From the NCBI RefSeq assembly GCF_000019605.1, contig NC_010482.1:900001-932000 (forward strand): DNA of 32,000 bases. Reading direction: 5' to 3'. A program made the position numbers and the translations under genes. Positions within the stretch are counted from its first letter, which is position 1, and each line of letters opens with the position of its first letter. The notes beneath the pieces were generated by a model, which was not told the origin of the DNA, made no database searches, and worked only from the letters and a program-made list of their open reading frames with translations. Shown piece by piece: positions 471 to 26,405 of the stretch. The stretch is from Candidatus Korarchaeum cryptofilum OPF8 (GTDB lineage: Archaea; Korarchaeota; Korarchaeia; Korarchaeales; Korarchaeaceae).

Positions 471-497
471 TTTACATAAAATATATATAAAAATTTC
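471..497 (+). promoter_or_regulatory. TATA/BRE-like A/T block, likely promoter of the FtsZ-paralog operon
   Basis: tttacataaaatatatataaaaattt is the strongest TATA-like element in the 430-nt A/T-rich intergenic region. It predicts a 5-prime UTR of about 75-100 nt ending at a GGAGGT Shine-Dalgarno site (583-588). Confidence 0.45.
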
Positions 498-512
498 GTC
501 AATCTTTGCGGT

Positions 513-534
513 GGTTGGTGGTCCCGCACCAACC
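513..534 (+). promoter_or_regulatory. GC-rich stem-loop in the predicted 5-prime leader of the FtsZ-paralog operon
   Basis: GGTTGGTG (513-520), loop gtcccg, then CACCAACC (527-534) give an 8-bp perfect stem. It is extendable by GC/GC across a 3-nt bulge. It forms a GC island inside an otherwise A/T-rich spacer. Confidence 0.4.
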
Positions 535-596
535 GCTGAGAGGGAGCGAGGCTATGAGCCGAAGTTTTCGTCCTATAAAATGGGAGGTAAGTGAAG

Positions 597-1610
597 ATGG
601 CTAGCAGTAGGGCCGGTCTTCCAACGAGATTTGAGGAAATACCAACTAAAATCACTGTTTTGGGCGTTGGAGGAGCAGGAATAAAGGCTATTGATAGCTT
701 AGCAAGATCTGGAATGGAATTGGCGAAATTAGTCGCTTTAGACTCTGATCTGAATGCCCTAAGGCAGGTCAAGGCACATGAGATCATCCAGGTCGGGGAG
801 AATACGCTTAGGGGGAGAGGAAGCGGAGGAGATATAAGCCTAGCCCAGAAAGCAGTCGATGAGGATTTAGACAAGGTTATAAGGACTCTAGATGTCTGCG
901 ACCTCCTCATAGCTGTAGCTGGACTTGGCGGAGGTATGGGAAGCGGTGGATTGCCATATCTCCTGAGGGCGATAAGGGATCAGTATGGGGATAAAGCCCC
1001 GGCTATGATATCTATCGTAACGATTCCCTTCAGGTATGAAGGGCAGACGAAGATGAAGAATGTCCAGTCGGGATTGAGGGAAATAGTTGTCGTGAACGAT
1101 AGTGTCGTGGTGAACATGAACGATGTCCTCCTTGAGAAATTCGGTGAGATGCCTGCTCAAGTTGCTTACTCGAGGATGGACAATATACTGAAGATGGCCA
1201 TAAATTACATAGTTGAGATGCTGGATCCCAGGGACACTTTGCAGAGGCTCGACTTCCCAGATCTCAAGGGGATGATAGAGAGATCCGGGATAGGGTTCAT
1301 AGGCATAGGTTCCCACAGGAGCGTCAGGAAAGCTGTTGAAAGCGCTATAGATACTAGGTTGCTAGACGCAGAGCCAACTTCAGCCTCAGGTTATCTCCTC
1401 TACATCAAGATACCGCCAACTGCGAGTCTTTCGGAGGTCATAGATGGGCCTAGGCTCATAACGGAGAAGTATGATGTCGAGAGAATTTCATTCGGGGCTA
1501 GATTGAACCCCATGCTCAGAACACCGGAGTCCTTCGTTTACGCTACTGGCGTCGACTCTCCCTTCGTGAAGGAGATGATAGGAGATGTTAAAGAGCTCTT
1601 GAGGGAGTGA
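597..1610 (+). CDS. FtsZ/tubulin-superfamily GTPase, paralog 1 (tail-less, divergent)
   Basis: ORF 591-1610. ATG 597 lies 8 nt after GGAGGT (583-588), and GTG 591 is also in frame. Ordered FtsZ motifs are GVGGAG (T1), ALDSDLNAL, GRGSGGDISLA (T3-like), GLGGGMGSGG (T4 tubulin signature), IVTIPFRYEG, T7 region RLDFPD (1245-1262) and GIGFIGIG at the C-domain start. Confidence 0.9.
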   Translation: MASSRAGLPTRFEEIPTKITVLGVGGAGIKAIDSLARSGMELAKLVALDSDLNALRQVKAHEIIQVGENTLRGRGSGGDISLAQKAVDEDLDKVIRTLDVCDLLIAVAGLGGGMGSGGLPYLLRAIRDQYGDKAPAMISIVTIPFRYEGQTKMKNVQSGLREIVVVNDSVVVNMNDVLLEKFGEMPAQVAYSRMDNILKMAINYIVEMLDPRDTLQRLDFPDLKGMIERSGIGFIGIGSHRSVRKAVESAIDTRLLDAEPTSASGYLLYIKIPPTASLSEVIDGPRLITEKYDVERISFGARLNPMLRTPESFVYATGVDSPFVKEMIGDVKELLRE

Positions 1611-2635
1611 TGAGAATGGCTATCAGGGGAAGGATGGTCGATAGAGGGTTGGAGAGTGTAGAGAAAGCGACCGAGGCCAAGATAAATATAGTGGGCATTG
1701 GAGGATGCGGCAATAACATAATAAGCGCATTTTACAAGAAGTTCCCGAAGAACGTAAAGACGATAGCTGTCAATACTGATTCCGCTGTACTGAAGAAGGC
1801 CGATGCCGATGAGAAGGTCTTAATAGGAAGGTATACTCACAAGGGAAGGGGAGCCCAGGGAGTACCTGATCTAGGGAGAGAGGCGATGGAGGAGGATATA
1901 GAAAGCGTATTAAGAGCTTTGGATGAGAACGTGGGCATCGTTATAGGCATAGCTGGGATGGGAGGCGGAACTGGTTCAGGAGGTCTCCCGGTGCTCATGA
2001 GGGAGATAGGCTTGAGGAAGAGAGAGGTGATAAAGATCTCGGTGGTCACATTACCAATGAGGGAAGAGGGAGAGGAGAGGAAGAGAAATGCCCAATTCTC
2101 ATTGAAGGAGACCTTAGAGGTTTCCGATGTGACTGTCGTAAATGCTAACGACTTAGCTATGGAGAAAGCGAAAAGCGTGGATCTCAACTATGCATTCTCA
2201 ATGGTCAATAGGAAGATAGAGAGGAGCATCTATGCTCTCGTTAAGATGCAGAGCTCAGAGACAGGACCTGGCTACGTTAACGTTGATCTGAGCAATTTCG
2301 CGAGGATATCCTATCAGTCTGGCTTGGGCTTCATAGGAGTGGGGAGAGGTCGCTATATATTCGAGGCTTTCGATGATGCCCTGCAGGATGATTATGCCAA
2401 GTGTGACTTAACGGAGGCCAAGGGAGCGATAATATACTTTGAGGGCAAATCCGTCGACCTGAGGGTGGATCAGATGAGGGAAGCGACTGATATATTGAGC
2501 AGAAGGTACAGGATTCCCACTGTGTTCATGGGAGTCAGGCCTACCTTCGAGTACCCTGATGTGAGGGTCAACCTCCTCGTGACTCAGGTGAGGTCTCACT
2601 ATGTGGATGATTTTTTAGCTGAGTTAGGTTTGTGA
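1607..2635 (+). CDS. FtsZ/tubulin-superfamily GTPase, paralog 2
   Basis: The start overlaps the paralog-1 stop. Candidate starts are GTG 1607, ATG 1610 and ATG 1616, and ATG 1616 has the best spacing to GGGAGTGAT. Motifs are GIGGCGNN, AVNTDSAVL, GRGAQGVPDLG, GMGGGTGSGG, VVTLPMREEG, T7 NVDLSN (2279-2296) and GLGFIGVG. Confidence 0.9.
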   Translation: MMRMAIRGRMVDRGLESVEKATEAKINIVGIGGCGNNIISAFYKKFPKNVKTIAVNTDSAVLKKADADEKVLIGRYTHKGRGAQGVPDLGREAMEEDIESVLRALDENVGIVIGIAGMGGGTGSGGLPVLMREIGLRKREVIKISVVTLPMREEGEERKRNAQFSLKETLEVSDVTVVNANDLAMEKAKSVDLNYAFSMVNRKIERSIYALVKMQSSETGPGYVNVDLSNFARISYQSGLGFIGVGRGRYIFEAFDDALQDDYAKCDLTEAKGAIIYFEGKSVDLRVDQMREATDILSRRYRIPTVFMGVRPTFEYPDVRVNLLVTQVRSHYVDDFLAELGL

Positions 2636-2644
2636 GTTGGGGGG

Positions 2645-2953
2645 ATGGATATGTTCCGTAGGAAGAAAGAGGAAGAGAAATCGCCTGCTCAACCTCCCGT
2701 TCAACCTCCTGTTCAGCCTGAGCCTCGAGTATCCGTTGCTGAGCTGGTTAACAGGTACTTAGATGAGAACAAGGGAGAGGTCTCACTCGCATGGTTCGCG
2801 AGGCAGGAGAAGTTCCCATATATACCTCCCCTATTAGCGGTCAAGGAATACGTTGAGGCGAAGGGAGGAAGCGTATCAGATATGGAAGAGCTGAGGAGGA
2901 CTTATATGAGGATACTGGAGTCCAAGATGGCATCTATGGGAAGCGCGCTATGA
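2645..2953 (+). CDS. Small operon-embedded protein (102 aa): basic N-terminus, QPPV repeat linker, about 65-aa helical C-terminal domain; function unknown
   Basis: ORF begins 9 nt after the paralog-2 stop and is preceded by GGGGGAT. No competing ORF, and codon usage matches its neighbours. Sequence begins MDMFRRKKEEEKSPAQPPVQPPVQPEP. Confidence 0.7.
   Translation: MDMFRRKKEEEKSPAQPPVQPPVQPEPRVSVAELVNRYLDENKGEVSLAWFARQEKFPYIPPLLAVKEYVEAKGGSVSDMEELRRTYMRILESKMASMGSAL
2690..2719 (+). repeat. In-frame tandem repeat encoding QPPV-QPPV-QP
   Basis: caacctcccgtt (2690-2701) and caacctcctgtt (2702-2713), followed by cagcct. Confidence 0.8.
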
Positions 2954-2964
2954 GGTGAGCTTCA

Positions 2965-3960
2965 ATGATGTCTAGGTCCGAGTTAGCTAGGGCTTCCGAG
3001 CTCTCCGCCCTCAAGATGGTGCTAGTGGGCGTTGGAGGATGCGGTAACAATACAGTGAACAATGTAAAGAGGTACGGTGTCAGAGTTCCAACTGTCGCGG
3101 TCAATACTGACGCTCCCACGCTGCAGAGGATAAGTGCTGACATAAAGATATTGATCGGGGAAGGCGCTCACAAGGGAAGGGGAGCCGCTGGTTCGCCAGA
3201 GCTAGGCAGGCAAATAGCGGAGCAGGATATGGACAAGATATTAGCCCCGCTGAGGGACAAGGAACTCATAATGATAACTGCAGGCATGGGAGGAGGTACA
3301 GGGACAGGAGCTGGACCGACGATAGCTGAAGCTATCAAGGAGAAGTTCCCGGACAAGATAGTCATAGGGATAGTCACTTTACCTTTCACATCTGAGGGGC
3401 CGACTAGGATAAGGAACGCCCAGTGGGGCCTCTCCAGGATGCTCGACTCCGCTGATATGACTGTAGTCAATGCTAACGATTTACTCAAGGAGAGGGCAGG
3501 TAACTTACCAGTTAGCCAGGCTTTCAGGGAAATGGACAAGCTCCTAGTCGATATAATAGATTCTATAGTGGGTCTCCAGGATATAGTACCGCAGCCGGGT
3601 CTCGTGAACATAGATTACAGCAATATGGAAGTCTTAGTGAGGGGCTCTGGCTTGGGCTTCATAGGTATAGGGAGAGGGAGAAGCTCGATGGAAGCTTTCA
3701 GAAATGCATTAGCTGCGAATTACAGCCAGGCAGATATAAGGAACGCTAAGGGAGCTATAGTCTACGTTGAGGGCAATCAATCGCAGCTGGTGATGAGGGA
3801 GCTCGACAGGATACCTCAAATGCTTTCGAGCGATTACAATATAATGAGCATATTCTGGGGAATAAAGCCGAACTGGAAGCTCTATGAACCCAAGATAATG
3901 CTTCTGGCGACTGGAGTTAGATCTGAGCTCGTCGATAGATGGTTACAAGGAGGGATATGA
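2965..3960 (+). CDS. FtsZ/tubulin-superfamily GTPase, paralog 3
   Basis: GAGGTGA precedes ATG 2965. Motifs are GVGGCGNN, AVNTDAPTL, GRGAAGSPELG, GMGGGTGTGAGP, IVTLPFTSEG, T7 NIDYSN (3607-3624) and GLGFIGIG. It is the closest relative of paralog 2, sharing a 19-nt identical stretch at 1837-1855 and 3168-3186. Confidence 0.9.
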   Translation: MMSRSELARASELSALKMVLVGVGGCGNNTVNNVKRYGVRVPTVAVNTDAPTLQRISADIKILIGEGAHKGRGAAGSPELGRQIAEQDMDKILAPLRDKELIMITAGMGGGTGTGAGPTIAEAIKEKFPDKIVIGIVTLPFTSEGPTRIRNAQWGLSRMLDSADMTVVNANDLLKERAGNLPVSQAFREMDKLLVDIIDSIVGLQDIVPQPGLVNIDYSNMEVLVRGSGLGFIGIGRGRSSMEAFRNALAANYSQADIRNAKGAIVYVEGNQSQLVMRELDRIPQMLSSDYNIMSIFWGIKPNWKLYEPKIMLLATGVRSELVDRWLQGGI

Positions 3961-4196
3961 TGATCAAGAGGGAGGAGGTAGTGGGAAAGGAGGTAATAGA
4001 TAGCTCAGGGAGGAGGGTAGGGGTAGTGGATGATGTCGTCATAGATCAGGAGGGAAAGGCTAGCCTCCTCGTCAGGGTGAAGATAGTTAGAGGAGGAAGT
4101 GAGAAAGTCCTGGAGTACACACTCCCCCCATCAAATATTTTAGCTGTTGGTGATGTTGTTTTAGTTAAAGGTATTGTGGAGGTGAGGAGGAAATGA
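3957..4196 (+). CDS. Stand-alone PRC-barrel domain protein (about 79 aa)
   Basis: ATG 3957 overlaps the paralog-3 stop (ATATGATG) and follows GGAGGGA. The longer track ORF starts at 3939. MMIKREEVVGKEVIDSSGRRVGVVDDVVIDQEGKASLLVRV...LPPSNILAVGDVVLV matches the PRC-barrel pattern (G-x-x-V-x-D-x-x-G-x-x-[IV]-G-x-V-x-D-[VL]-x-[IV]-D). Confidence 0.8.
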   Translation: MMIKREEVVGKEVIDSSGRRVGVVDDVVIDQEGKASLLVRVKIVRGGSEKVLEYTLPPSNILAVGDVVLVKGIVEVRRK

Positions 4197-5182
4197 GTTG
4201 GAGGAGAGGAGAGCCCACTTCCCAGCTCAAGCTGGCTGTGGTGGGCATAGGAGGAGCAGGTTGCAACATGATAACGAACATCAAGAGGACCGGCTTCTCG
4301 GATGCGAAGCTGATAGCGGTTAATACCGATGCCGCCTCTCTCAGTGCAACGAAAGCGGATCATAAGGTGCTCGCGGGCGAATCTTTCCTAGGAGGAAGGA
4401 GCGCCAGAACTATAGAGAATGGGAAGAAAGCCATGGAGGCTGTTAAGGAGAACCTGATATCTATGCTGAGCGATAGGGAGCTCATAGTACTCTTAGCTGG
4501 TTTGGGAGGAGGTGCGGGAACAGGAGGAATAGTTACGTTAGCTGAGACGATAAAGGAGAGCTTACCGAATGCCCTAACGATAAGCTACGTTGTTATACCA
4601 TTCGCGAGCGAGGGAGAGGTGAGGATAAACAATGCGAAGTACGGTCTCTCCGAGATAATAGATCTCTCCGATGTCACTTGGGTAGCTTTCAATGATGTGC
4701 TGAAGAGGAAGTTCACGAACATGCCGCTGACTAGGGCATATAAGATGATGGATGATAGGCTCTTCAACGTCATAAGAGGTCTGGCTTCCCTTCAGAACCT
4801 CTCACCGCTTCCGGGGATGCAGAATGTCGATTTTGCGATAATGAAGGAAATTGCCAAGGGATCTGGCTTAGGTTACGCTGGATTCGGGGAAGGGAGGACA
4901 GCAAGAGAGGCATTCGAGTCTTCCTTAGTTGATCCCTTCGGAGATGCTGATCACAAGGGAGCTAAGGGTGTAGTTGGGATACTTGAGTCCACTGAGACAG
5001 CTGTCTCGGTTGAGGGGATGACATACGTTCAGGATGTCCTAACGACTAACCTGGGAATACCTGAGGTCTACTTCGGTCTCAAGCCGAGCATAGAGATGAC
5101 CACTCCCAAGGTCACTGTCTACACATTCGGAGTTAAGTCAAGGATGGTGGAGGACTTCCTGAGTTCTATGGGAGGTGGCTAA
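4193..5182 (+). CDS. FtsZ/tubulin-superfamily GTPase, paralog 4 (most degenerate T3 region)
   Basis: ATGA overlap with the PRC-barrel gene stop. Motifs are GIGGAGCN, AVNTDAASL, GLGGGAGTGG, VVIPFASEG, T7 NVDFAI (4823-4840) and GLGYAGFG. The T3-equivalent reads GGRSARTIENG rather than G-x-G-x-G-x-x-P. Confidence 0.88.
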   Translation: MSWRRGEPTSQLKLAVVGIGGAGCNMITNIKRTGFSDAKLIAVNTDAASLSATKADHKVLAGESFLGGRSARTIENGKKAMEAVKENLISMLSDRELIVLLAGLGGGAGTGGIVTLAETIKESLPNALTISYVVIPFASEGEVRINNAKYGLSEIIDLSDVTWVAFNDVLKRKFTNMPLTRAYKMMDDRLFNVIRGLASLQNLSPLPGMQNVDFAIMKEIAKGSGLGYAGFGEGRTAREAFESSLVDPFGDADHKGAKGVVGILESTETAVSVEGMTYVQDVLTTNLGIPEVYFGLKPSIEMTTPKVTVYTFGVKSRMVEDFLSSMGGG

Positions 5183-5185
5183 GCA

Positions 5186-6157
5186 ATGTCAGGAGCTCCT
5201 GAGGGTGCCAGGGTAACGATGACGGTCGTAGGTGTAGGAGGGGCCGGTTGCAATACTTTAAACAGACTCAAGGAAGTAGGTGCGCCCGTAAAGACGATAG
5301 CAATACATACCGAAGCTAATCATCTAAAGGCGATCAAATCCGATGTCAAGCTTCTCGTCGGGGAAACAGTAACTGGCGGTTTCGGTAGCGGAGGCAACCC
5401 CAATGTGGGTGAGAGAGCTATAATGGCGGATCTGGATAGGATAATGGCAGCTATAGGTAGGCCGCACGTCCTCATAGTGACTGGAGGGCTAGGAGGAGGA
5501 ACCGCTTCGGGAGGAATTGCGCCTATACTCTCGGCAGTTAGGGACAGGTTCCCCGATGTCATAAGGATAGCTTTGGTCTCCTTCCCCTTCTCTTGGGAGG
5601 GGTTGGGAAAGGTAAATAACGCTAGATATGGCCTCTCGAGGATAATGGGGGTAGCGGATCTCACGATAGTGAACTTAAACGATATATTGAGCAGGAAGAT
5701 CGGGTACATACAGGTTCAATATGCATTCAAGTACGCTGACTCACTGCTAGCAGCTGTCATCTCAGATCTCGCTAACCTGTTCTACATGCCCCATGTGGTC
5801 AGCATAAGCTTCGCTGACTTCGAGGCTGTCGTTAGAGAGGCTGGCTTAGGTGCCGTAGGGCTTGGAGTCGGCGGAAGGGTTGCCGATGCAGCGAAGACAG
5901 CCCTAGGGAACATATTGCTCGACGCTGAGATAAAAGAAGCTGACTCCGCGCTAGTTTACTTGCAGGCGACTCCCAATACGAGCTTAGAGGAGGCTGGCTC
6001 TGCTACCAAGCTCCTAACTGAGGATTACCTCCTCGAGAGGGTCTACTGGGGATTCAGGATAGCTGAAGATCTCAACGAGCCCAGGATAACTATAATAGCC
6101 TCGGGCGTGAGGTCCCCAACGCTAGAAGGTCTGCTCGGGATCTCGGCCACTAGATAA
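5186..6157 (+). CDS. FtsZ/tubulin-superfamily GTPase, paralog 5
   Basis: Starts 3 nt after the paralog-4 stop, with GGAGGTGG upstream. Motifs are GVGGAGCN, AIHTEANHL, GGFGSGGNPNVG, GLGGGTASGG, VSFPFSWEG, T7 SISFAD (5801-5818) and GLGAVGLG. Confidence 0.88.
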   Translation: MSGAPEGARVTMTVVGVGGAGCNTLNRLKEVGAPVKTIAIHTEANHLKAIKSDVKLLVGETVTGGFGSGGNPNVGERAIMADLDRIMAAIGRPHVLIVTGGLGGGTASGGIAPILSAVRDRFPDVIRIALVSFPFSWEGLGKVNNARYGLSRIMGVADLTIVNLNDILSRKIGYIQVQYAFKYADSLLAAVISDLANLFYMPHVVSISFADFEAVVREAGLGAVGLGVGGRVADAAKTALGNILLDAEIKEADSALVYLQATPNTSLEEAGSATKLLTEDYLLERVYWGFRIAEDLNEPRITIIASGVRSPTLEGLLGISATR

Positions 6158-6162
6158 ACTAC

Positions 6163-6176
6163 TTTTTTTCTTTTTT
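6163..6176 (+). terminator. Oligo-T terminator of the FtsZ-paralog operon
   Basis: T7-C-T6 begins 6 nt after the TAA at 6155-6157. It is the first oligo-T tract after seven tightly packed genes. Confidence 0.65.
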
Positions 6177-6263: not shown

Positions 6264-7172
6264 ATGGCTTCGGATGAGGATTCCAGCAGGATTGAACTGA
6301 GCGTTAATAAGGCACCACCGCTCTACCCTGTGAAGCTTAGCCTCGAGATGAGGCAGGAACTTGTCGTTAGATCGCTTAAAGTGAGCAATTATATAAGCAT
6401 AGCTAAGGAGACAGGCATCCCCTTAGCTAAGGTAATGAAGATAATGTCGACGCCCAGCTCACCTATGCCCCTCGCCCTAGTTTTGAAACTAGCTGAACTC
6501 GCTAGAATAGATCTATGGGACGTCCTCCGATCTATCGAGGGCATGGGCATAAGGAAGTTCCTTAAGCCCAATTTCGATGTTGAAGCCGCGGCTTCCTTCA
6601 TAGGTTATGCCGTCTCGAGCAGCTCGAAGTTCAAGGTGGGAAGGGGAAATGTAACCGTATCCCTGAGGTACGATGATGATTTCCAGCTCTCACACATCAT
6701 AGATCTATCTAAGAGGATCCTGAACATAGAGGCGTCGGATATCTCCATCAATAGGAGGGAGAGGAAGGTCTATCTATTATCTCAGTTCGGCGTTATATTG
6801 CTCCTCTTTGGAGCTCCGACGAAGAGAGAGTTTTACGATGGCTGGGAGATCCCATGTTGGCTTGAGAGGTACCCATCCCATTTCCTGAAGACTTTCCAGA
6901 GCGGAAGGTTATTCAGGAGCGTGCCCTCTAGGGGATGCGCTAGGTTCTACTTCAAGACGTTCAACATGGAGGGGATGCTCAAGTTCATAGAGAGGCTCAG
7001 AGGCTTATACGCGAGGGTAGGGGTTAATATGGAGGAGAGGCCCAGGCTACTCTCAGATAACATAATATACATCGAGATATGCAGGAGAGCAGTCCTCGAG
7101 GCTCTGCTTTACTCGATAGGCTTCACGTCTCAAAGAAAAATAAGGGAGATTTCCCAGCTCCTGGGGAGATAG
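6264..7172 (+). CDS. Hypothetical protein with an N-terminal helix-turn-helix and a possible degenerate LAGLIDADG-like domain
   Basis: 302-aa ORF. A TATA-like atatttttatc lies about 27 nt upstream of the ATG, suggesting a leaderless transcript. The HTH-like segment is VSNYISIAKETGIPLAKVMKIM. AASFIGYAVSSSSKF resembles a LAGLIDADG helix but lacks the acidic residues. Confidence 0.6.
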   Translation: MASDEDSSRIELSVNKAPPLYPVKLSLEMRQELVVRSLKVSNYISIAKETGIPLAKVMKIMSTPSSPMPLALVLKLAELARIDLWDVLRSIEGMGIRKFLKPNFDVEAAASFIGYAVSSSSKFKVGRGNVTVSLRYDDDFQLSHIIDLSKRILNIEASDISINRRERKVYLLSQFGVILLLFGAPTKREFYDGWEIPCWLERYPSHFLKTFQSGRLFRSVPSRGCARFYFKTFNMEGMLKFIERLRGLYARVGVNMEERPRLLSDNIIYIEICRRAVLEALLYSIGFTSQRKIREISQLLGR

Positions 7173-7451
7173 TCACTTGATCTTATTCATTATTGATTGC
7201 TTAATCCCCTCTAAGTCCTGAACCAAGGCCTTTCTATCGTCTGGATCCAGCTCCTCTAGGCTTCCATAGTTCTGCTTGAGGTAATCTATCCAGGAGTTGG
7301 GTATCTCCTTGTCCTCCTCCTCAAGCATCTCATTCAGCCTCTGGAGCTCCCTTATCAGATCCGCTACTTTGGGCTTGGAGTAGATGAGCTTATCCTCAAC
7401 GGACTGAATGAACTCGCCGAGCTTGAAGGATAATCTGGGGTCTGAGTACAT
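7173..7451 (-). CDS. Small acidic helical hypothetical protein (92 aa)
   Basis: ORF lies 4 nt downstream of the 7456-8787 gene on the same strand. Its stop abuts the stop of the convergent 6264-7172 gene with no spacer. Confidence 0.6.
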   Translation of the reverse strand: MYSDPRLSFKLGEFIQSVEDKLIYSKPKVADLIRELQRLNEMLEEEDKEIPNSWIDYLKQNYGSLEELDPDDRKALVQDLEGIKQSIMNKIK

Positions 7452-7455
7452 CCTC

Positions 7456-8787
7456 TCACCCTGTTGGGGGCTTTATCACTATGCTAACCTCCTCCTTCTC
7501 CTTCCTCCTCTTGTATATCAGGAAGCCAGCTACAGCTATTACTACTATAACCACGGCTATCACAGCTATCATTATGTTCCTCTGCTTCTCTTCCTCCATC
7601 CTCTTGATCATCTCCTTCTGTTCAGTTACGTAAGACTTCGCCTCATTGCTCAGATTCTCTATGCTATTTAAGATGGAGTTGGCCGTCTGATTAGCCCCTG
7701 AAAGGTCTCCAGCTGACCACTTCTCATATACCGCTCTCTTCTCCGAGTTGAGCCTCGAGACCTCATTATAGAACTTATCCAAGGATATGTTGGGCTCGCT
7801 CTTCCTCGTCTCCTCGAGATATGATGCGAATTGAGATAACTTCGTCTCAACAACCACTAGCTTTGAAACGAAGCTCATGTAGTCGTTTATCTTCCTCTCA
7901 ATCGCTTCGAGCTGGCTTAAGGCTTCCTCACTAGCTCCCCTATCTATCATAGCCTTCACGCTCTCAAGGCTCTTGTTGATGCCACTCGCGACATTCAAGA
8001 GCGTTGATGAATCTCCTCCCACCCTATCTAAATCGCCTTTCATGTTCACGAAGCTGGAGAGCTTAGATCTGACTTCCTCATATTTCCTCTTCGCTAAGGA
8101 GGGAGATGAGAGCCAGGAGAAGAGTTCTTTAGTGAATAACTTGTTATCCTTCTGAGAGAGAAGAGCCCCGCTGAAGAAATCTACTGAGGATACGACTACC
8201 CTTCCCATCCCGTAGTTCTGTCCCACCATCAAGACTAGGTTACTCTGACGCGGGTCCGTCTCAGTGAACCTCCCATTCTTATCCCTATCTATCCATACTT
8301 CCTTACTGATCAGGAACCTCGGCAAGTTAGCTGAGAGGCTCAATGAACTCCCTTTGACTATCACTTCTCTTGAGTACTTGAAGTAAGTCGAGTTAACGGT
8401 GGCCTCGAATGGGTCGCAACCGCCTATGACCTTTATCGTGCACAGAGGATCGTCGGTAGACATAGCATTGAATACTGCGCTCACGGCGTTCCTGACTATT
8501 AGTAGGGAGTGACCAGCTCTCACATAAGAGTCCAGCTGGCTGATCTCACCCTCGCTCAATGGAGCAGTTTGGTTCACGATCACCAATATATCTATATCCT
8601 CGGATACGGTATCAACATCCTTAACTATGTAGCCCTCGCTCTCAAGTAGCTTCTTTAGCTCCGGGAACTTTGCAGAGGAAAGTCCGTGCTTCTTATCGAA
8701 TCCCACTGTAATGCTTCCTTGAGACTCGGCCATTACAGGTGCAAGTAGTATTAGAAGCGCTAATAGGACTACAATTCTTTCTCTCAT
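7456..8787 (-). CDS. Secreted, C-terminally membrane-anchored protein: signal peptide, alpha/beta domain (DUF4350/GldG-like by eye), long coiled coil, TM anchor
   Basis: ATG at 8787 is preceded by GGTGGAGGTGATC, a near-perfect anti-16S SD. The track ORF extends to 8886 without support. N-terminus MRERIVVLLALLILLAPVMAES is a signal peptide. C-terminus IMIAVIAVVIVVIAVAGFLIYKRRKEKE is a TM anchor followed by basic residues. Confidence 0.75.
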   Translation of the reverse strand: MRERIVVLLALLILLAPVMAESQGSITVGFDKKHGLSSAKFPELKKLLESEGYIVKDVDTVSEDIDILVIVNQTAPLSEGEISQLDSYVRAGHSLLIVRNAVSAVFNAMSTDDPLCTIKVIGGCDPFEATVNSTYFKYSREVIVKGSSLSLSANLPRFLISKEVWIDRDKNGRFTETDPRQSNLVLMVGQNYGMGRVVVSSVDFFSGALLSQKDNKLFTKELFSWLSSPSLAKRKYEEVRSKLSSFVNMKGDLDRVGGDSSTLLNVASGINKSLESVKAMIDRGASEEALSQLEAIERKINDYMSFVSKLVVVETKLSQFASYLEETRKSEPNISLDKFYNEVSRLNSEKRAVYEKWSAGDLSGANQTANSILNSIENLSNEAKSYVTEQKEMIKRMEEEKQRNIMIAVIAVVIVVIAVAGFLIYKRRKEKEEVSIVIKPPTG

Positions 8788-9226
8788 GATTAAGATCACC
8801 TCCACCCCGCGCACGGGTGGACATTTAGTTGCCCTAGTGAGGAATAATAAAAATGTTGATGGAGCTTCGTATACTCCCTCATTCAACTCAGTCCTGAGTC
8901 AAAGCTCTTATCATTATTGTAGCACATACCTTCGGATGGAGAGTATTCATCTTTGAAGGAGCTCATAAAGGGAGAGAGCCTCTAAATGGTTGAGGATGTC
9001 AAGATGAGGTTTCAAGATGAACAGCGAGGATCTGAAGATCTACTAAAGGCTGTATAAATGGCTTAAATAGAGCCCTTTGCATAAGGTTCCCTCCCGGACA
9101 ATTTTCTATTAGCTTAATGCGAACTAATTCTTTCATTCGGAGTTGAAAAATAGGTAGGACCTTCCGATTACCCCTCTATTATAATTCGATAGGTCCCTTT
9201 TTCTTGCAATCATTCCCATTAGAATC

Positions 9227-9461: not shown

Positions 9462-10067
9462 TTAAGCTTTGACCTTAGCCTCGGCATATGATTGAATGGA
9501 TCTGCTCATTATGTCAGCTCTCACGGTCTTAAGGAAGTGAATGAATGCTTCTTGAACGCCATCCCCTCGTAAAGCTGAGATGGGGATAACTTCCGCTTCC
9601 ATCCCCAGGAGGCCCTTTATCACATCCGGGGGCTTAGCATCCGGGAGATCCTGTTTATTTGCCAGGACCAGGAATGGGAATCCCGGGGGGAGGACTTCTC
9701 TAGCTTCCTGATACTGGCCGAGAGCGTAGACCAGTTGAACGGGTTGAGTACTATCTACTATCATTATTACGCCATCCTTACCTTTCACCAGCGCCTTCCT
9801 GACGTAAGAGAACGCGATCTGCCCCGGAGTTCCCGTAAGCGTGACCTTCCATATCTCATTGAAGGGATCTAAATTCTCTATACTCTCCTTAGGGTAAAGC
9901 TCGTTCTTCGTAGCATCCCAGAAGATTATTCCGTAATCGAAACCAACGGTTGTGGATAGAGTACCTTTCTCATAATCCATCCTCACAGCAGAAGGATCCA
10001 GCTTCCTTATGAAAGTGCTCTTTCCCGCTTGATGAGGACCTATTATAGCTAGGGAGATCTTCCTCAT
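9462..10067 (-). CDS. MglA-type small Ras-superfamily GTPase
   Basis: G1 is GPHQAGKST and the switch-I Thr sits in STTVGFDYG. G3 is TGTPGQ, with Thr replacing the DxxGQ Asp as in the MglA family. G4 is NKQD and G5 is ISALRG. A 4-nt ATGA overlap joins it to the upstream 528-aa gene. Confidence 0.85.
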   Translation of the reverse strand: MRKISLAIIGPHQAGKSTFIRKLDPSAVRMDYEKGTLSTTVGFDYGIIFWDATKNELYPKESIENLDPFNEIWKVTLTGTPGQIAFSYVRKALVKGKDGVIMIVDSTQPVQLVYALGQYQEAREVLPPGFPFLVLANKQDLPDAKPPDVIKGLLGMEAEVIPISALRGDGVQEAFIHFLKTVRADIMSRSIQSYAEAKVKA

Positions 10068-11650
10068 CCCTTAGCACCTAGCTGCATCTTTACCTCATTC
10101 ACCCTAGATTTGAGCTGGGATATCAGCTCCCTGTACTCAGAGATCCTTCCCATCATGAATAAGGACTTCGCCCTCTCGAAGTCCTCTCTGATCCTCTTTA
10201 TGCCCATATCATCCAAATTTGGGAGCATTACTCCTAAATCAGATACCATATCCTCTATTACCTCTATTTCCATCTCCAATTTCCTCATGTCCTCAGGGAT
10301 TATCCTCATGGCTACCTTATCCTCGTTAACGACCACTATCCCCTCATCAGCTAGGTTCCTGAGGACCCAAGGCCTCCAGCTCCCGGGAATGAACTTCAAG
10401 TCTTGGAGAGATATTTCCCCTCTCTCCCTGAGAAGTGATATTATTTTTTCCCTCCATTTCGGATATAGCTCCAATATTTCACTCATTACCCCAGTATAGC
10501 CGACCGTCTCGGGCATCCCGTAAGAGAGCCTTGAGGCTCTGAGGCAGTTGTTGAGGCTATCCAAGAAAGACTCCGTTGAATCTAATGAGATCTTGCTTAG
10601 ATCTAGCTTTGCATCCTTAGGGATATACTCCAGCTCATCTATGACGCTCTTAATTAGCGAACTTATCCTGTTTAACCTTTCAACCTCCCTCCTCAGGGAT
10701 TCTATATGTATTCTAGATCTTATGAGGAGGGGTATCTTGGGGAAATCCAACCCTATATAGGGAATTATCTCCTTGAACCTTCTGAGCTCCGCTATCCCCT
10801 CCATCCTCTCTAAGAGATCTCCCTTCATCTCCTCAATACTAGCCTTCAGATCTATCAACTTTTGGGAAATTTGAATCAGCTTCTTGGAATCATTCTCAAC
10901 TTCTGCAAGCCTGGAGGTGATATTCTTCAAATATTTCTGCAGGATCCCTTCCTCGACCTCTTGAAGCCTCTCAATAAATCTCTCTCGCAATTCTAAATAA
11001 TGTGAGAGTCTTTCATATCTCACTCCCATCAGATCTAGCTCTTCTTCAATTGATCTCAATTTTTCGAATGCTTCGTTTAGAGATGATATAGCTTCCTCCT
11101 TTATCTTCCTCTGCTCCTCTTTAGGCTCAACTTTCTGCTCCTGGACTTCTTTATGAATCTCGGATTTCTTTAAGATCCTCAAGAAGCTCAGAGCTGCTGG
11201 TATCTCCTCATAACTCCTCAGTTCCTCTATATCTAGCCCCTTTTCACGTATATATGCATTTACTTTGGTGACGAGCTCCCTCTCCAGAGAGTTAACTTCC
11301 TCGAGCGTGACCTCCAGGATCCTCCTTACTTCCTTAATCTTCCCCTTATCCCTGAGGAAGGGCCTCATATAAGCCGGATCCCCTATTAGGCTTGTCACTA
11401 TCCCCTTCACGGACTGGAATAGCAGATTTGCTCTGTTCGATATATCCTCCCCGCTCCCTATTTCCTTTTCGACCTCCGGAGAGATTTCTCCCAGCTTCTT
11501 CACCTTCTCCAGTATTTTCTCGAGTAGGGGAAATAGTTCATCCTTCTTCATCAAGCTCTCAAGCTTATCTATCTTATCTAAGCCGTATCCAGCCTCCAGC
11601 AGAGAGGCCCTCAGCGCCTCCCATGGGTTCTCCGATTCCATACAATCCAT
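10064..11650 (-). CDS. Large coiled-coil protein (528 aa) with a C-terminal winged-helix-like module; function unknown
   Basis: Long heptad-rich E/K/L/I/R sequence. Near the C-terminus, ISLLRERGEISLQDLKFIPGSWRPWVLRNLADEGIVVVNEDKVAM looks like a wHTH. Translationally coupled to the MglA-type GTPase. The alternative start is ATG 11641. Confidence 0.75.
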   Translation of the reverse strand: MDCMESENPWEALRASLLEAGYGLDKIDKLESLMKKDELFPLLEKILEKVKKLGEISPEVEKEIGSGEDISNRANLLFQSVKGIVTSLIGDPAYMRPFLRDKGKIKEVRRILEVTLEEVNSLERELVTKVNAYIREKGLDIEELRSYEEIPAALSFLRILKKSEIHKEVQEQKVEPKEEQRKIKEEAISSLNEAFEKLRSIEEELDLMGVRYERLSHYLELRERFIERLQEVEEGILQKYLKNITSRLAEVENDSKKLIQISQKLIDLKASIEEMKGDLLERMEGIAELRRFKEIIPYIGLDFPKIPLLIRSRIHIESLRREVERLNRISSLIKSVIDELEYIPKDAKLDLSKISLDSTESFLDSLNNCLRASRLSYGMPETVGYTGVMSEILELYPKWREKIISLLRERGEISLQDLKFIPGSWRPWVLRNLADEGIVVVNEDKVAMRIIPEDMRKLEMEIEVIEDMVSDLGVMLPNLDDMGIKRIREDFERAKSLFMMGRISEYRELISQLKSRVNEVKMQLGAKG

Positions 11651-13643: not shown

Positions 13644-14546
13644 GTGTCGTTCAAGAGGCTCGTTTCAAGTGTATTCGGGCTCTTTAAGAAGCCGACTACT
13701 CTAGTCATTTTAGGATTGGATGGCGCCGGGAAAACGACGATGCTGAATTACTTGCTCACAGGGGAGCCAGGGGTAACCGCACCGACAGTCGGAGCCAATT
13801 TCGAGAAGTTCAAGGTCAAGGAGCTTGAGTTCAACGTATGGGATCTCGGAGGTCAGAAGGCCCTAAGGGGTATGTGGGAGGAGTACGCTGAGAAGGCTGA
13901 TGCGGTAATTTTCGTTCTGGACTCAGCTGATAGGGAGAGATTCCCTGAGGCTAAGGAGGAGCTCTGGAGGATAGTCTCCGTGATAAGGAAGAGTAAGCCT
14001 CTACTCATAATCGCGAATAAGGCTGATCTTGAGAATGCTGCGACAGTAATGGAAGTTATAGAAGCATTGGAATTGACGAAGTTAGAGGGGATGACTTGGC
14101 AGATAGTCTGGGCTAGCGCTTTAACGGGCTTCGGCTTATTCGAGGCCTTCGCATGGATCTATGAGAGGCTGACAGGCAAGGAAGTTTCGCACCCCCTCAG
14201 GATAGAGGATCTGATCGTTTTAGATGATAAAGGGAACCCAATAATTTCAACGAGTTCGACAACTAGCTTGACGCTCAGCGCCTTCGTTTCATTAGTGAGG
14301 AATTATACGACGGAATCTCTCAAAGATATCCCGCAGACGATAGAGATGAGGGACAAGAGATTGATAATAGCGATCAGGGAGGGCCTGATAGGCGCTGCTT
14401 TGGTCCCCCGTTACTCCTCCGAGAGTAAGGTGAAAGCGCTCCTAGTGGATGTCCTCAATAACATAGCGAGGGTCAAGGATAAGGAGAGGGCTAGGGAGGC
14501 CCTCATGGAAGTAATAGAAAAGTACGTTGAGAACGTAGGGACTTGA
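13644..14546 (+). CDS. Arf/Arl/Sar-family-like small GTPase with N-terminal amphipathic helix, fused to a C-terminal Roadblock/longin-type domain (300 aa)
   Basis: GTG start. The nearby ATG at 13642 is out of frame and terminates quickly. N-terminus is MSFKRLVSSVFGLFKK. G1 is GLDGAGKTT, switch I is PTVGANFE, and the interswitch/G3 is FNVWDLGGQ. These are followed by VLDSADRERFPEAKEEL, G4 ANKADLENA and G5 ASALTGFGLFEAFAWI. Residues about 185-300 read as beta-beta-alpha-beta-beta-beta-alpha (IEDLIVLDDKGNPIIST...). Confidence 0.85.
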   Translation: MSFKRLVSSVFGLFKKPTTLVILGLDGAGKTTMLNYLLTGEPGVTAPTVGANFEKFKVKELEFNVWDLGGQKALRGMWEEYAEKADAVIFVLDSADRERFPEAKEELWRIVSVIRKSKPLLIIANKADLENAATVMEVIEALELTKLEGMTWQIVWASALTGFGLFEAFAWIYERLTGKEVSHPLRIEDLIVLDDKGNPIISTSSTTSLTLSAFVSLVRNYTTESLKDIPQTIEMRDKRLIIAIREGLIGAALVPRYSSESKVKALLVDVLNNIARVKDKERAREALMEVIEKYVENVGT

Positions 14547-15894: not shown

Positions 15895-17559
15895 ATGGAT
15901 TTGAGGTGGAGGAGCAGATACGTCACTGAGGGACCTGAGAGGGCCCCTCAGAGATCTCTATTCAAGGCAGCAGGTCTTGATGATGAGGATCTCAAGAGAC
16001 CGATAATAGGAATAGCCAATTCCTGGAACGAGATAGTGCCGGGGCACGTTCACCTCGATAAAGTAGCTAAAGCAGTTAAGGAGGGAGTCAGGGAGGCTGG
16101 AGGAACTCCGTTGGAGTTCGACACTATAGCTATATGCGACGGGATAGCTATGGGTCACGAGGGGATGAAAGCTCCCCTCCCCAGTAGGGAAGTAATAGCT
16201 GCGAGCGTGGAGCTCATGGCGAAGGCCCATGCTTTCGATGCTCTCGTCCTGATAACTTCATGCGATAAGATAACTCCTGGAATGCTCATGGCCGCAGCGA
16301 GGCTGAACATACCAGCTGTAATGGTTAACGGGGGCTGCATGCTCCCGGGAATTCACGAGGGGAAGGAGGTAGCGATAAGCCAGTTGTTCGAAGCAGTCGG
16401 CCAGTACGCCTCGGGGAAGATTAGCGAGGAGGAACTTAGGAGGATGGAATCTCTAGCTGTCCCAGGCCCGGGGTCTTGCGCGGGGCTTTACACAGCTAAT
16501 ACGATGGCTATAGCCGGCGAGGCTCTCGGCATGATCCCTCCAAACACTTCCACTATACCAGCAGTATCGGCTGACAGGATAAGGGCTGGAAGGCTCGCTG
16601 GGAGATTGGTCATGAGGATGCTCGAGATAGGGCTGAAGCCGAGGGATATAATGACTTATGAGGCATTCGAAAATGCCATAAGAGTGGATGTAGCTCTGGG
16701 AGGATCTACTAATGCTGTACTGCATCTCATGGCGATAGCTAGGGAAGCTGGCATAGAGCTGCCCCTGGAACTGTTCGATAGGATAAGCAGGGAGACCCCT
16801 CACTTAGCCAATATAAATCCGGCTGGCCCCCATTACGTCAAGGATCTGCATTACGCAGGGGGAGTGCCCGCCATATTCAAGGAGCTCTCCGATATGATGC
16901 ACCTCGACGCCATTACAGTGTCAGGGGAGAGGTGGAGGAGCATAATCGAGAGAGCTGAGGTTAAGGATAGGAGAGTCATAAGGCCCAAGAGCGACCCTTA
17001 CCATAAGGAGGGTGGTCTAGCGATTCTCTGGGGCAGTTTGGCTCCTAGAGGAGCTGTAGTGAAGCAGACAGCTGTGGATCCGGAGATGCATGTCTTCAGG
17101 GGTAAGGCTAAGCCGTTCAACTCCGAGGAGGAAGCTGTTAAAGCTCTATTCGATGGTAAGATAGGGGAAGGCGATGTCGTAGTAATAAGGTACGAGGGCC
17201 CGAAGGGAGGGCCTGGGATGAGGGAGATGCTCACAGCTACCGCTACCATAACTGGAATGGGTCTGAGGAGAGTCGCACTGATAACTGATGGTAGATTCTC
17301 CGGAGCCACTAGAGGACCTGCTATAGGCCATGTCTCCCCTGAGGCAGCCGAGGGAGGGCCCATAGCTTTAGTGGAGGAAGGCGATGAGATACTGATAGAT
17401 ATACCGGGGAGGAAGCTCGAGCTATTAGTGAGCGAGGAGGAGCTGGATGAGAGGAGGAAGAATTGGAAACCGATGAAAAAGGAGGAGTCAGGATTCCTGA
17501 GGATATTCTCGATGCTAGCTGAGTCAGCTGATAGGGGGGCTGTACTGAGATATCAGTAG
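15895..17559 (+). CDS. ilvD: Dihydroxy-acid dehydratase
   Basis: 554 aa. IlvD/Edd family motifs include [14 protein letters not shown], the Fe-S cysteines in [13 protein letters not shown] and [23 protein letters not shown] and [23 protein letters not shown]. Confidence 0.93.
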
Positions 17560-23875: not shown

Positions 23876-24540
23876 AGGAATGCCACGTAATCTGAGATCC
23901 TGACCGCTTGATATGGAGTATGCGTGACGAATACTACCGTTATATCATGGCTCTCGACTAGTCCTCTCAACGCTTCCTCTATCTTAGAGGCATTTATAGG
24001 GTCTACATTGGCTGTAGGCTCATCTAGGAGTAGGAGCTTCGGCCTCAGAGCTAGAGCTCTAGCTAGGCAGAGTCTCTGCTGCTGCCCACCGCTCAGCTTA
24101 TTGGGAGGATCCTTGAGCCTATCCTTGACCTCATCCCAGAGCATAGCTCTCTCAAGGGCCCACCTGACGAGATCATCTAGCTCCCTCTTATCCTTCACGA
24201 GTCCATTCATCTTAGGGCCTACGGCAACGTTATCGTATATGCTCATGTTCGGGAATGGATTCGGCACCTGGAAGACCATGCCAGTGAGCCTCCTAACTTT
24301 ATAGGGATCTGATGAGTAGACCTCGGTATCGTATATCCTTACCCTCCCGCTCACCTCGCATCCGGGGACTAGATCTAGCAGCCTGTTTATCGCTCTCAGT
24401 AGCGTGGACTTACCGGAGCCCGAGGGTCCCATAACAGCTAGTATCCTCCTCTCCGGAATTTCAATATTTATCCTCTTAAGTATCTCCTTCCCTCCAATTT
24501 TTACCGTTAGATCGCTTATAGATAGGGCGACTCTCCTCAT
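23779..24540 (-). CDS. pstB: Phosphate ABC transporter ATP-binding protein
   Basis: Walker A is GPSGSGKST, the signature is LSGGQQQRL and Walker B is LLLDEPT. The PstB-type MVFQVPNPFP and the C-terminal TMRFLKGE tail are present. Confidence 0.92.
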   Translation of the reverse strand: MRRVALSISDLTVKIGGKEILKRINIEIPERRILAVMGPSGSGKSTLLRAINRLLDLVPGCEVSGRVRIYDTEVYSSDPYKVRRLTGMVFQVPNPFPNMSIYDNVAVGPKMNGLVKDKRELDDLVRWALERAMLWDEVKDRLKDPPNKLSGGQQQRLCLARALALRPKLLLLDEPTANVDPINASKIEEALRGLVESHDITVVFVTHTPYQAVRISDYVAFLYMGELIEFGLTQEIALNPKHELTMRFLKGEA

Positions 24541-25379
24541 AAGACCACCCTCCTAGTCAAACTCCTAGTAGCGAGGAATATCAAGAGGAATATCGATGTG
24601 AGGACTAAGGCAGAACCCCAGGCGACTCTATGCCAGTTAGCGTATGGAGTCTGTATGAAGTCGAATATCAGGAGCGATATCGAGTCCGTGTAGCCCAAGG
24701 GATCTAATGATATCATTTGCCTCTGCTTCCCGACTGTGAAGAGGAGGGGAGCAGTCTCCCCGGTGACTTTCGCGAATCCCATCAGTACCCCCGTGAGTAT
24801 GCCCCTCTTAGCTATACTCACGCTTATCTTAAATACTACTTTCGTCCTCGAGAGCCCGAGGGCATAACCAGCCTCCCTATAAGTTTTCGGCACATTTTCC
24901 AGGGCTTCCTCAACGTAAGTAGTAACATAAGGGATCATCATTATGGCCAAGGCTAAAGAGCCAGCTAGCATTGAGAATTTTCCCATGGGAACTACCATTA
25001 TTGTATATACGAGCATCCCAACTAAGATGGATGGTATCTGAAGGAGAGCTTTGCTGAGGACCCTCACTCCCCTGGATATTACGTTATCGGGGAACTCCAC
25101 GGAGAACAGAGCTGAGGCGAAGGATAGGGGGATCCCTACTAGGGAGGATATGAAGGCGAGCATGAAAGTGCCCACTAAGGAGGGGCCTATACCACCCAAT
25201 CCCCCTCCTGGAGGGGGAGGGGAGTCCACCAGGAAATCGACTCCCGCTGAGATGAGGACGGGCAATCCATTGTAGAAGATGGAGAGGAGTATGTGGAAAA
25301 TAGGGAGTATCGCTAATGCCGCTAGCGATAGGGAAGTTATCAAGAATAGCTTCTCCTTCAATTCCCTCAGCTCAGCCAT
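24537..25379 (-). CDS. pstA: Phosphate ABC transporter permease PstA
   Basis: 280 aa, 6 TM. The EAA loop is YREAGYALGLSRTKVVFKISVSIAKRGILTG...GETAPLLFT. A 4-nt overlap joins it to pstB. Confidence 0.88.
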   Translation of the reverse strand: MAELRELKEKLFLITSLSLAALAILPIFHILLSIFYNGLPVLISAGVDFLVDSPPPPGGGLGGIGPSLVGTFMLAFISSLVGIPLSFASALFSVEFPDNVISRGVRVLSKALLQIPSILVGMLVYTIMVVPMGKFSMLAGSLALAIMMIPYVTTYVEEALENVPKTYREAGYALGLSRTKVVFKISVSIAKRGILTGVLMGFAKVTGETAPLLFTVGKQRQMISLDPLGYTDSISLLIFDFIQTPYANWHRVAWGSALVLTSIFLLIFLATRSLTRRVVL

Positions 25380-26331: not shown

Positions 26332-26405
26332 TCCCCGTACCTTCGGGCCCCCCTTAAAAGTAAAAACTATAAACTTAATCGATTTAGACAAAATAGCTAT
26401 AAGTT

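Follow-up and report, generated by a model that had tools for sequence, protein, structure and literature searches.

The stretch analysed here, which we call the window, comprises 32,000 nucleotides (nt) from Candidatus Korarchaeum cryptofilum OPF8 (contig NC_010482.1, positions 900,001 to 932,000 of the forward strand), and all positions given below are in window numbering. Close to its left end lies an array of seven codirectional genes on the forward strand, in the order Z1-Z2-S-Z3-PRC-Z4-Z5, in which five FtsZ-like paralogs (Z1 to Z5) are accompanied by a gene for a small orphan protein, S, and by a gene for a 79-amino-acid (aa) PRC-barrel protein that is the subject of this report (Table 1). 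The genes are tightly packed: the intergenic distances from Z1 to Z5 are, in order, -4, 9, 11, -4, -4 and 3 nt, no gap exceeds 11 nt in the window or 20 nt in related loci, and each of the seven genes is preceded by a Shine-Dalgarno-like motif. The AT-rich region upstream of Z1, with its TATA-like elements, is a putative promoter; the GC content of positions 1-500 is 0.36, compared with 0.49 for the whole window. Oligo-T tracts act in archaeal transcription termination, and because of this the T7-C-T6 element just beyond Z5 is likely to be an archaeal terminator that marks the end of the operon.

Table 1 Features of the seven-gene array and of its conserved neighbours in the window
Feature	Position	Strand	Basis
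Putative promoter region: AT-rich, TATA-like elements at 471-496 and 574-580, Shine-Dalgarno-like GGGAGG at 582-587	471-590	+	Sequence reading
Z1, FtsZ-like paralog 1, 339 aa (true start possibly ATG 597)	591-1610	+	Pfam Tubulin 104 bits; clade bootstrap 100
T7 loop of Z1, LQRLDFPDL	1239-1265		
Z2, FtsZ-like paralog 2, 342 aa; 4-nt overlap with Z1	1607-2635	+	Pfam Tubulin 119 bits; clade bootstrap 100
T7 loop of Z2, YVNVDLSNF	2273-2299		
S, 102-aa orphan protein	2645-2953	+	In every array found
Z3, FtsZ-like paralog 3, 331 aa	2965-3960	+	Pfam Tubulin 142 bits; clade bootstrap 83
T7 loop of Z3, LVNIDYSNM	3601-3627		
PRC gene, 79-aa product	3957-4196	+	ORF translation MMIKREEVVGKEVIDSSGRRVGVVDDVVIDQEGKASLLVRVKIVRGGSEKVLEYTLPPSNILAVGDVVLVKGIVEVRRK
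Z4, FtsZ-like paralog 4, 329 aa	4193-5182	+	Pfam Tubulin 102 bits; clade bootstrap 100
T7 loop of Z4, MQNVDFAIM	4817-4843		
Z5, FtsZ-like paralog 5, 323 aa	5186-6157	+	Pfam Tubulin 97.5 bits, FtsZ_C 38 bits; clade bootstrap 100
T7 loop of Z5, VVSISFADF	5795-5821		
Two oligo-T tracts, T7-C-T6, 6 nt past the Z5 stop; likely terminator	6163-6176	+	Sequence reading
302-aa protein, conserved array neighbour	6264-7172	+	No Pfam or NCBIfam match
92-aa protein, conserved neighbour	7173-7451	-	Homologs in L009 and L051
Type-I membrane protein, ORF 476 aa (likely start ATG 8787, giving 443 aa)	7456-8886	-	Transmembrane prediction and homologs

An earlier note, made from the letters of the stretch, had described the open reading frame (ORF) between the third and fourth paralogs as a stand-alone PRC barrel and a natural candidate for an adaptor, bundler or anchor of FtsZ-like filaments. 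The observation itself is confirmed, with both of the peptide strings that it quoted present in the 79-aa product, and the interpretation is reasonable and partly supported. At the upstream junction the PRC ATG (3957-3959) shares bases with the TGA stop of Z3 (3958-3960), and at the downstream junction the PRC TGA stop (4194-4196) shares bases with the Z4 ATG (4193-4195); the ATGA overlap on each side bears out the claim that the gene is translationally coupled to both of its neighbours. Three in-frame ATGs could begin the PRC gene (3939, 3957 and 3960). A Shine-Dalgarno-like AAGGAGGG at 3947-3954 lies 3-10 nt 5' of the latter two and 3' of ATG 3939, and the PRC orthologs begin at the equivalent of 3960, which gives 78 aa and abuts the Z3 stop. 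The start at 3939 (85 aa), which is used in some annotations of metagenome-assembled genomes (MAGs), was rejected, as the Shine-Dalgarno-like motif lies downstream of it and the orthologs begin later. The PRC start therefore either overlaps or abuts Z3, and the two options are practically equivalent.

Measured against two Korarchaeum orthologs, the ratio of non-synonymous to synonymous substitution rates (dN/dS) of the PRC gene is 0.11-0.15, and it is therefore a real gene under purifying selection, although it is less constrained than the flanking paralogs, for which the ratio is 0.01-0.04. Because of this ratio, and because eight other lineage-level loci have an ortholog, with 35-85% identity, at the corresponding place, the ORF is not a product of chance. 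An overlapping antisense ORF (4046-4363, reverse strand) has no comparable support from dN/dS or orthologs.

The product is a single PRC-barrel domain that spans nearly the whole protein, with the chain ending 6 residues past the barrel. Pfam PF05239 matches with 30.3 bits (E 4.1e-7; gathering cut-off 21.2 bits), aligning residues 3-73 of 79 to model positions 4-74 of 78. An AlphaFold2 model built from an alignment of 12 orthologs has a mean predicted local distance difference test (pLDDT) score of 84.4 and six strands, and it forms an all-beta bent-sheet barrel of the RC-H, RimM-C and MTH1859 type. Its top Foldseek matches in the PDB are 8ONW, 1PM3 and 8QZO, with a template-modelling score of about 0.7 for CdpB1 and CdpB2 of Archaeoglobus fulgidus (8ONW and 8QZO), and the first 48 ranked PDB matches are all PRC-barrel structures (8ONW, 1PM3, 8QZO, RimM, 3HTR and RC-H subunits). 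The domain assignment of the earlier note thus holds both in the hidden Markov model search that it had called for and in the predicted structure. A profile of six sequences, searched against the PDB, recovered 1PM3 with 42 bits (E 5e-10), CdpB1 with 27 bits (E 3e-5) and CdpB2 with 23 bits. The top PDB match by sequence, 8FRE ('RBL4'), is a designed repeat protein aligned through low complexity, and was set aside as spurious. No NCBIfam family matches the PRC protein at E 0.01 or better. The 79 residues include neither a hydrophobic nor an amphipathic segment and, because the protein lacks such a membrane-binding element, the part of the earlier proposal in which the protein might be an anchor by binding the membrane directly is unlikely.

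All five Z proteins carry a Tubulin/FtsZ GTPase domain (97-142 bits in Pfam). The three that were scored against the FtsZ equivalog model TIGR00065 fall below its cut-off of 295.2 bits (Z1, 178; Z3, 231; Z5, 194), and by these sequence criteria the Z proteins are FtsZ-family paralogs and not FtsZ equivalogs. When aligned with the FtsZ of Pyrococcus and Archaeoglobus, all five paralogs terminate 15-22 residues past the last core strand, and the linker and C-terminal peptide of canonical archaeal FtsZ are missing from them. The absence of the anchoring tail asserted in the earlier note is thus upheld, with the caveat that Z1 alone retains a short conserved tail, D-V-x-x-L-[LMI]-[KR]-E. Hydrophobic segments are absent from all seven operon proteins.

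The T7 'synergy' loop (canonically N-x-D-F-x-D) is degenerate in ways that are specific to each paralog and conserved across lineages: R-x-D-F-x-D in Z1, N-x-D-x-S-N in Z2 and Z3, N-V-D-F-[AS]-[IMSV] in Z4 and S-I-S-F-A-D in Z5. The second T7 Asp, which we take to be the catalytic residue equivalent to Escherichia coli D212, is kept only by Z1 (in four of the five lineages aligned) and Z5, and is absent in Z2, Z3 and Z4. Such a pattern tentatively suggests an ordered heteropolymer in which some interfaces are GTPase-dead, by analogy with alpha/beta-tubulin.

The order Z1-Z2-S-Z3-PRC-Z4-Z5, with one-to-one orthologs, recurs in at least eight lineage-level loci, and the flanking genes vary by lineage. 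The full order was found in Korarchaeum species (L001-L005 and L011-L014) and in L006, L007/L008/L020, L009/L010/L015, L051 and L052. Across the full arrays the Z3 orthologs share 51-66% identity and the PRC orthologs 35-85%, and every operon gene of the window resembles its positional counterpart most. In a neighbour-joining tree, computed with bootstrapping by a distance method, each paralog forms its own clade (support 100, 100, 83, 100 and 100 for Z1 to Z5); Z2, Z3 and Z4 group together (support 100), as do Z1 and Z5 (95), and all lie apart from canonical FtsZ. Positional orthology together with one clade per paralog indicates that the seven-gene unit is older than the split between these lineages. 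All the five-paralog arrays found carry a PRC gene between Z3 and Z4, which is the co-occurrence in related genomes that the earlier note had proposed to look for. By contrast, no FtsZ-like gene lies within 8 kb of the nearest PRC relatives outside the arrays, which come from Bathyarchaeia and Methanobacteriaceae, and the linkage of PRC to FtsZ-like genes is therefore specific to this clade.

One divergent lineage, a Guaymas MAG labelled Bathyarchaeota archaeon DRO48 at NCBI, carries a variant array, Z1-Z2-S-Z3-Z5 (L049, 1434-5661; L050, 7000-11207), in which PRC and Z4 are both missing and the Z3 stop is followed directly by the Z5 start. In the neighbour-joining tree the Z3 of L049 nests within the Z3 clade and Z4 forms a separate clade, so that a secondary loss of the adjacent PRC-Z4 pair is the simplest explanation. 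PRC and Z4 are tied in two further respects. The PRC stop overlaps the Z4 start in six of nine loci, and the pairwise distances of PRC correlate best with those of Z4 (r 0.93; partial r 0.72, with no other gene above 0.44), a correlation in evolutionary rate that, with seven lineages and 21 non-independent pairs, is only suggestive.

The cluster itself has been described before. Elkins et al. (2008), as relayed by Moriscot et al. (2011) and Nussbaum et al. (2023), reported a Korarchaeum cluster of five ftsZ paralogs, one PRC gene and one small ORF. Nussbaum et al. (2023), citing Elkins et al. (2008), described a cluster of seven genes, five of them ftsZ paralogs and one for a PRC barrel, and called it the first hint of a link between PRC and FtsZ. 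Because both appear in Nussbaum et al. (2023) and Moriscot et al. (2011), the gene cluster and the adaptor hypothesis are already known from papers of 2008-2023. The literature links drawn in the earlier note, namely that CdvA has a PRC barrel at its N terminus and that CdpB1 and CdpB2 act with SepF and FtsZ, are accurate. A neighbourhood analysis by Zhao et al. (bioRxiv 10.1101/2023.03.28.534520) found a PRC gene near ftsZ or sepF in one genome only, that of a Micrarchaeota, and highlighted Korarchaeal sequences in its PRC tree; the Korarchaeum array seems to have been missed there, perhaps because the paralogs were not classed as FtsZ. In the literature searched we found no experimental test of an adaptor role for the PRC protein, and no localisation or division-defect data for the Korarchaeum protein. 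To our knowledge, K. cryptofilum is not genetically tractable. The comparative additions made here (the deep conservation, the co-loss of PRC and Z4, the tailed membrane protein described below and the T7 degeneracy) were not met in the literature searched and may serve as leads.

The published record also bears on what the array is for. Supplementary Data 1 of Pende et al. (2021) lists for K. cryptofilum two FtsZ (ACB08186.1 and ACB08089.1), one SepF (ACB08158.1) and no ESCRT-III. The SepF is encoded outside the window, and the two FtsZ accessions are 97 apart, so that at most one of them can lie inside the seven-gene array. Canonical FtsZ has been reported alongside non-canonical FtsZ-like sequences in TACK lineages, including Korarchaeia. 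Given that FtsZ and SepF are listed elsewhere in the genome and that canonical FtsZ is reported, the array is probably not the core division ring.

Beyond the seven genes, three neighbours recur. The 302-aa protein encoded after the likely terminator has homologs immediately 5' of Z1, transcribed divergently from it, in L009 (E 2.5e-28) and in L051 (E 3.6e-25). The homologs of the type-I membrane protein are codirectional with the array and lie directly 3' of Z5 in L009 (E 1.5e-47), L051 (E 5.5e-51) and L006 (E 2e-29); in L009 (E 1e-10) and L051 (E 1.4e-11) the next gene encodes a homolog of the 92-aa protein. The 92-aa protein is probably a coiled coil, to judge from weak Pfam matches below cut-off. 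With these three included, the conserved unit is one of about ten genes, not seven. In the membrane protein a signal peptide and a DUF4350-like ectodomain are followed by a long conserved segment, which leads to a C-terminal transmembrane helix and a cytoplasmic tail, KRRKEKEEVSIVIKP; the last 18 residues of the protein are KRRKEKEEVSIVIKPPTG. Its Pfam matches, DUF4350 and ABC_transp_aux, are both below cut-off, the long segment before the transmembrane helix may be helical, and the tail carries a conserved motif, EVxVV[LI][RK]P. We regard this protein as a candidate membrane partner of the array system.

The S protein has a conserved basic N-terminal peptide of the type MxFRRKKEE, a variable, proline-rich disordered linker and a four-helix domain. 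It has no Pfam or NCBIfam match, and a search of 5.8 billion sequences yields no more than 28 protein clusters for its family, each of them annotated as hypothetical. The AlphaFold2 model is confident (pLDDT above 94 for residues 31-100) and finds no PDB fold match at E<1. A role as a SepF-like anchor was considered and rejected, the model being all-helical and without a PDB match. S is also retained in the variant array of L049 and L050.

On balance, we judge it somewhat probable that a lineage-specific FtsZ-like filament system uses the PRC protein as a small adaptor subunit that, like CdpB and MTH1859, associates with itself. The PRC protein, the five non-canonical FtsZ-like paralogs and S would be made from one seven-gene transcript, and the PRC protein would bind the polymer, most probably through Z4, which would be made immediately after it. 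Two-fold interfaces join CdpB1 and CdpB2 into filaments, as they do MTH1859 in its crystal; the equivalent interfaces of the PRC barrel would link filaments to one another or tether them to a membrane-attached partner, which would be either SepF, encoded elsewhere, or the type-I membrane protein beside the array. The proposal starts from features that are directly established (the fold, the operon architecture, the conservation of gene and position, and the co-absence with Z4), and predicts from them that the protein self-associates, contacts Z4 and bundles or tethers filaments.

Several points weigh against this proposal. The physical interactions that it ascribes to the PRC protein are all inferred. 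As PRC and Z4 are neighbours, one deletion accounts for the loss of both, with no need of functional coupling; the signal from the mirror-tree comparison that joins them comes from 21 pairs that are not independent. The operon contains a single PRC gene, whereas two partners, B1 and B2, make up the heteropolymeric CdpB filament that has been characterised, and the cdpB genes of Haloferax are unlinked to ftsZ. RNA-processing PRC barrels such as RimM are among the fold matches, and the array of L049 and L050 persists without a PRC protein.

In a different role, the PRC protein would be a division-ring CdpB ortholog that binds the SepF encoded elsewhere and organises a ring of the two FtsZ from outside the array, like CdpB1 in Haloferax and Archaeoglobus, and its position in the operon would reflect co-regulation and not a direct contact with the paralogs. 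The division proteins listed by Pende et al. for K. cryptofilum (two FtsZ and one SepF, no ESCRT-III) and the canonical FtsZ reported beside non-canonical forms in TACK lineages, Korarchaeia included, would provide such a ring; CdpB1 and CdpB2 are the top structural matches, and CdpB1 binds SepF directly. Such a role does not, however, sit well with a PRC gene that is fixed between Z3 and Z4 in deep lineages and lost together with Z4, and the characterised cdpB genes are unlinked to ftsZ or sepF. The profile is also nearer to MTH1859 (42 bits) than to CdpB1 (27) or CdpB2 (23). We therefore consider this role unlikely.

A bolder form of the adaptor proposal, which we offer as speculation and hold to be rather improbable, would make the array a Korarchaeia-specific cytoskeleton apart from the division ring: a five-subunit ordered heteropolymer, GTPase-dead at some interfaces because the second T7 Asp is kept only by Z1 and Z5, with the PRC protein as the dedicated partner of Z4 that docks the polymer onto the EVxVV[LI][RK]P tail of the membrane protein. 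If this is true, a filament of the tubulin family inside the cell would be linked to a domain outside it. Korarchaeum cells are reported to be ultrathin and filamentous, and a cytoskeleton of this kind could underlie their shape.

The ties between PRC and Z4 could also be read as those of an assembly factor or chaperone for Z4, acting at the ribosome or transiently and forming no stable part of the polymer. The overlap of the PRC stop with the Z4 start in most lineages, the co-absence of the two genes and the rate correlation of PRC, which is best with Z4, would all be expected of such a factor, but this evidence is identical to that for a stable pairing and cannot separate the two; no PRC-barrel chaperone is known, and CdpB and MTH1859 are structural oligomers, which makes a chaperone quite improbable. 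Least credible is an RNA-binding barrel of the RimM type that acts on the translation or stability of the operon mRNA, or on the ribosome, and has no direct filament role: PRC barrels were first tied to RNA metabolism, many archaeal PRC genes adjoin genes for translation or RNA processing and RimM structures appear at Foldseek ranks 7, 14 and 38, but the top matches are CdpB and MTH1859 and not RimM, the single-domain protein lacks the RimM N-terminal domain and has no RimM match in Pfam and no NCBIfam match, the conserved neighbourhood holds no RNA-related gene, and the window holds no Rfam element.

The adaptor proposal gains its interest from what PRC barrels have become. They were recognised as archaeal division factors only in 2023-24, and the Korarchaeum cluster is the only place in which such a barrel is known to be built into an operon of tubulin-family genes. 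Mapping the partners of the PRC protein would reveal how a PRC barrel contacts FtsZ-family polymers, and would also show the purpose of a five-paralog array with differently degenerate catalytic loops.

The rest of the window is varied. Near the array, two small GTPases have a eukaryote-like appearance. One, at 13644-14546 on the forward strand, is an Arf-family protein (Pfam Arf, 168 bits) extended at its C terminus by about 125 aa. The second, Ras/Arf-like and 201 aa long, is encoded at 9462-10067 on the reverse strand by a gene that overlaps that of a 528-aa protein (10064-11650, reverse strand) that has no Pfam match and looks charged and repetitive by eye. These last two genes were seen beside the array only in loci of the genus Korarchaeum, and several ORFs without Pfam matches surround the two GTPase genes. 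To judge from ORF translations, the genes at 15895-17559, 21116-23875, 23779-26391, 26479-28275 and 28272-29423 look like ordinary housekeeping genes. The genes of this kind include dihydroxy-acid dehydratase-like, pyruvate phosphate dikinase-like, aldehyde:ferredoxin oxidoreductase-like and diaminopimelate decarboxylase-like genes, and those of a phosphate ABC transporter (pstB/A/C-like) with a PhoU-like gene. The window contains no tRNA and no Rfam match.

Among known PRC-barrel systems, one comparison is with YlmC/YmxH of Bacillus (COG1873), encoded in the dcw/sepF region. Close homologs of the array PRC protein are labelled 'sporulation protein YlmC with PRC-barrel domain' by the Joint Genome Institute, and YlmC itself is reported to assemble, in an AlphaFold2 model, into a filament like that of CdpB. 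The NCBIfam YlmC_YmxH model, however, gives no match to the array protein at E 0.01 or better, and YlmC/YmxH is bacterial, whereas the array protein has an archaeal host and an FtsZ-paralog operon as its context. CdvA of Thermoproteota likewise begins with a PRC barrel, and its gene shares an operon with those of the division polymer that it recruits, as the array PRC gene does with the paralogs; CdvA differs in having a coiled coil and an ESCRT-III-binding tail, neither of which is present in the 79-aa protein. No cdvB or cdvC lies in the window, and Korarchaeum, like the Korarchaeota in general, is listed without ESCRT-III.

By profile, the closest solved relative is MTH1859 of Methanothermobacter (1PM3, a 'putative adapter protein'), which is of the same length class and shares 35-38% identity in structural alignment. 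The nearest homologs of the PRC protein outside the arrays are MTH1859-type proteins of Methanobacteriaceae and Bathyarchaeia; unlike the array, the loci of these families that were compared (the MTH1859 locus itself was not among them) have no FtsZ within 8 kb. CdpB1, CdpB2 and CdpB3 of Haloferax volcanii and A. fulgidus share with the PRC protein a stand-alone single barrel of about 75-95 aa and about 10 kDa. They have a functional tie to FtsZ-family proteins, and CdpB1 and CdpB2 of A. fulgidus are the best structural matches of the array protein, with a profile E value of 3e-5 for CdpB1. Whereas the CdpB filament is a B1:B2 heteropolymer, the array operon has one PRC gene, and whereas the cdpB genes are scattered and unlinked to ftsZ or sepF, the array PRC gene is fixed inside a five-paralog operon.

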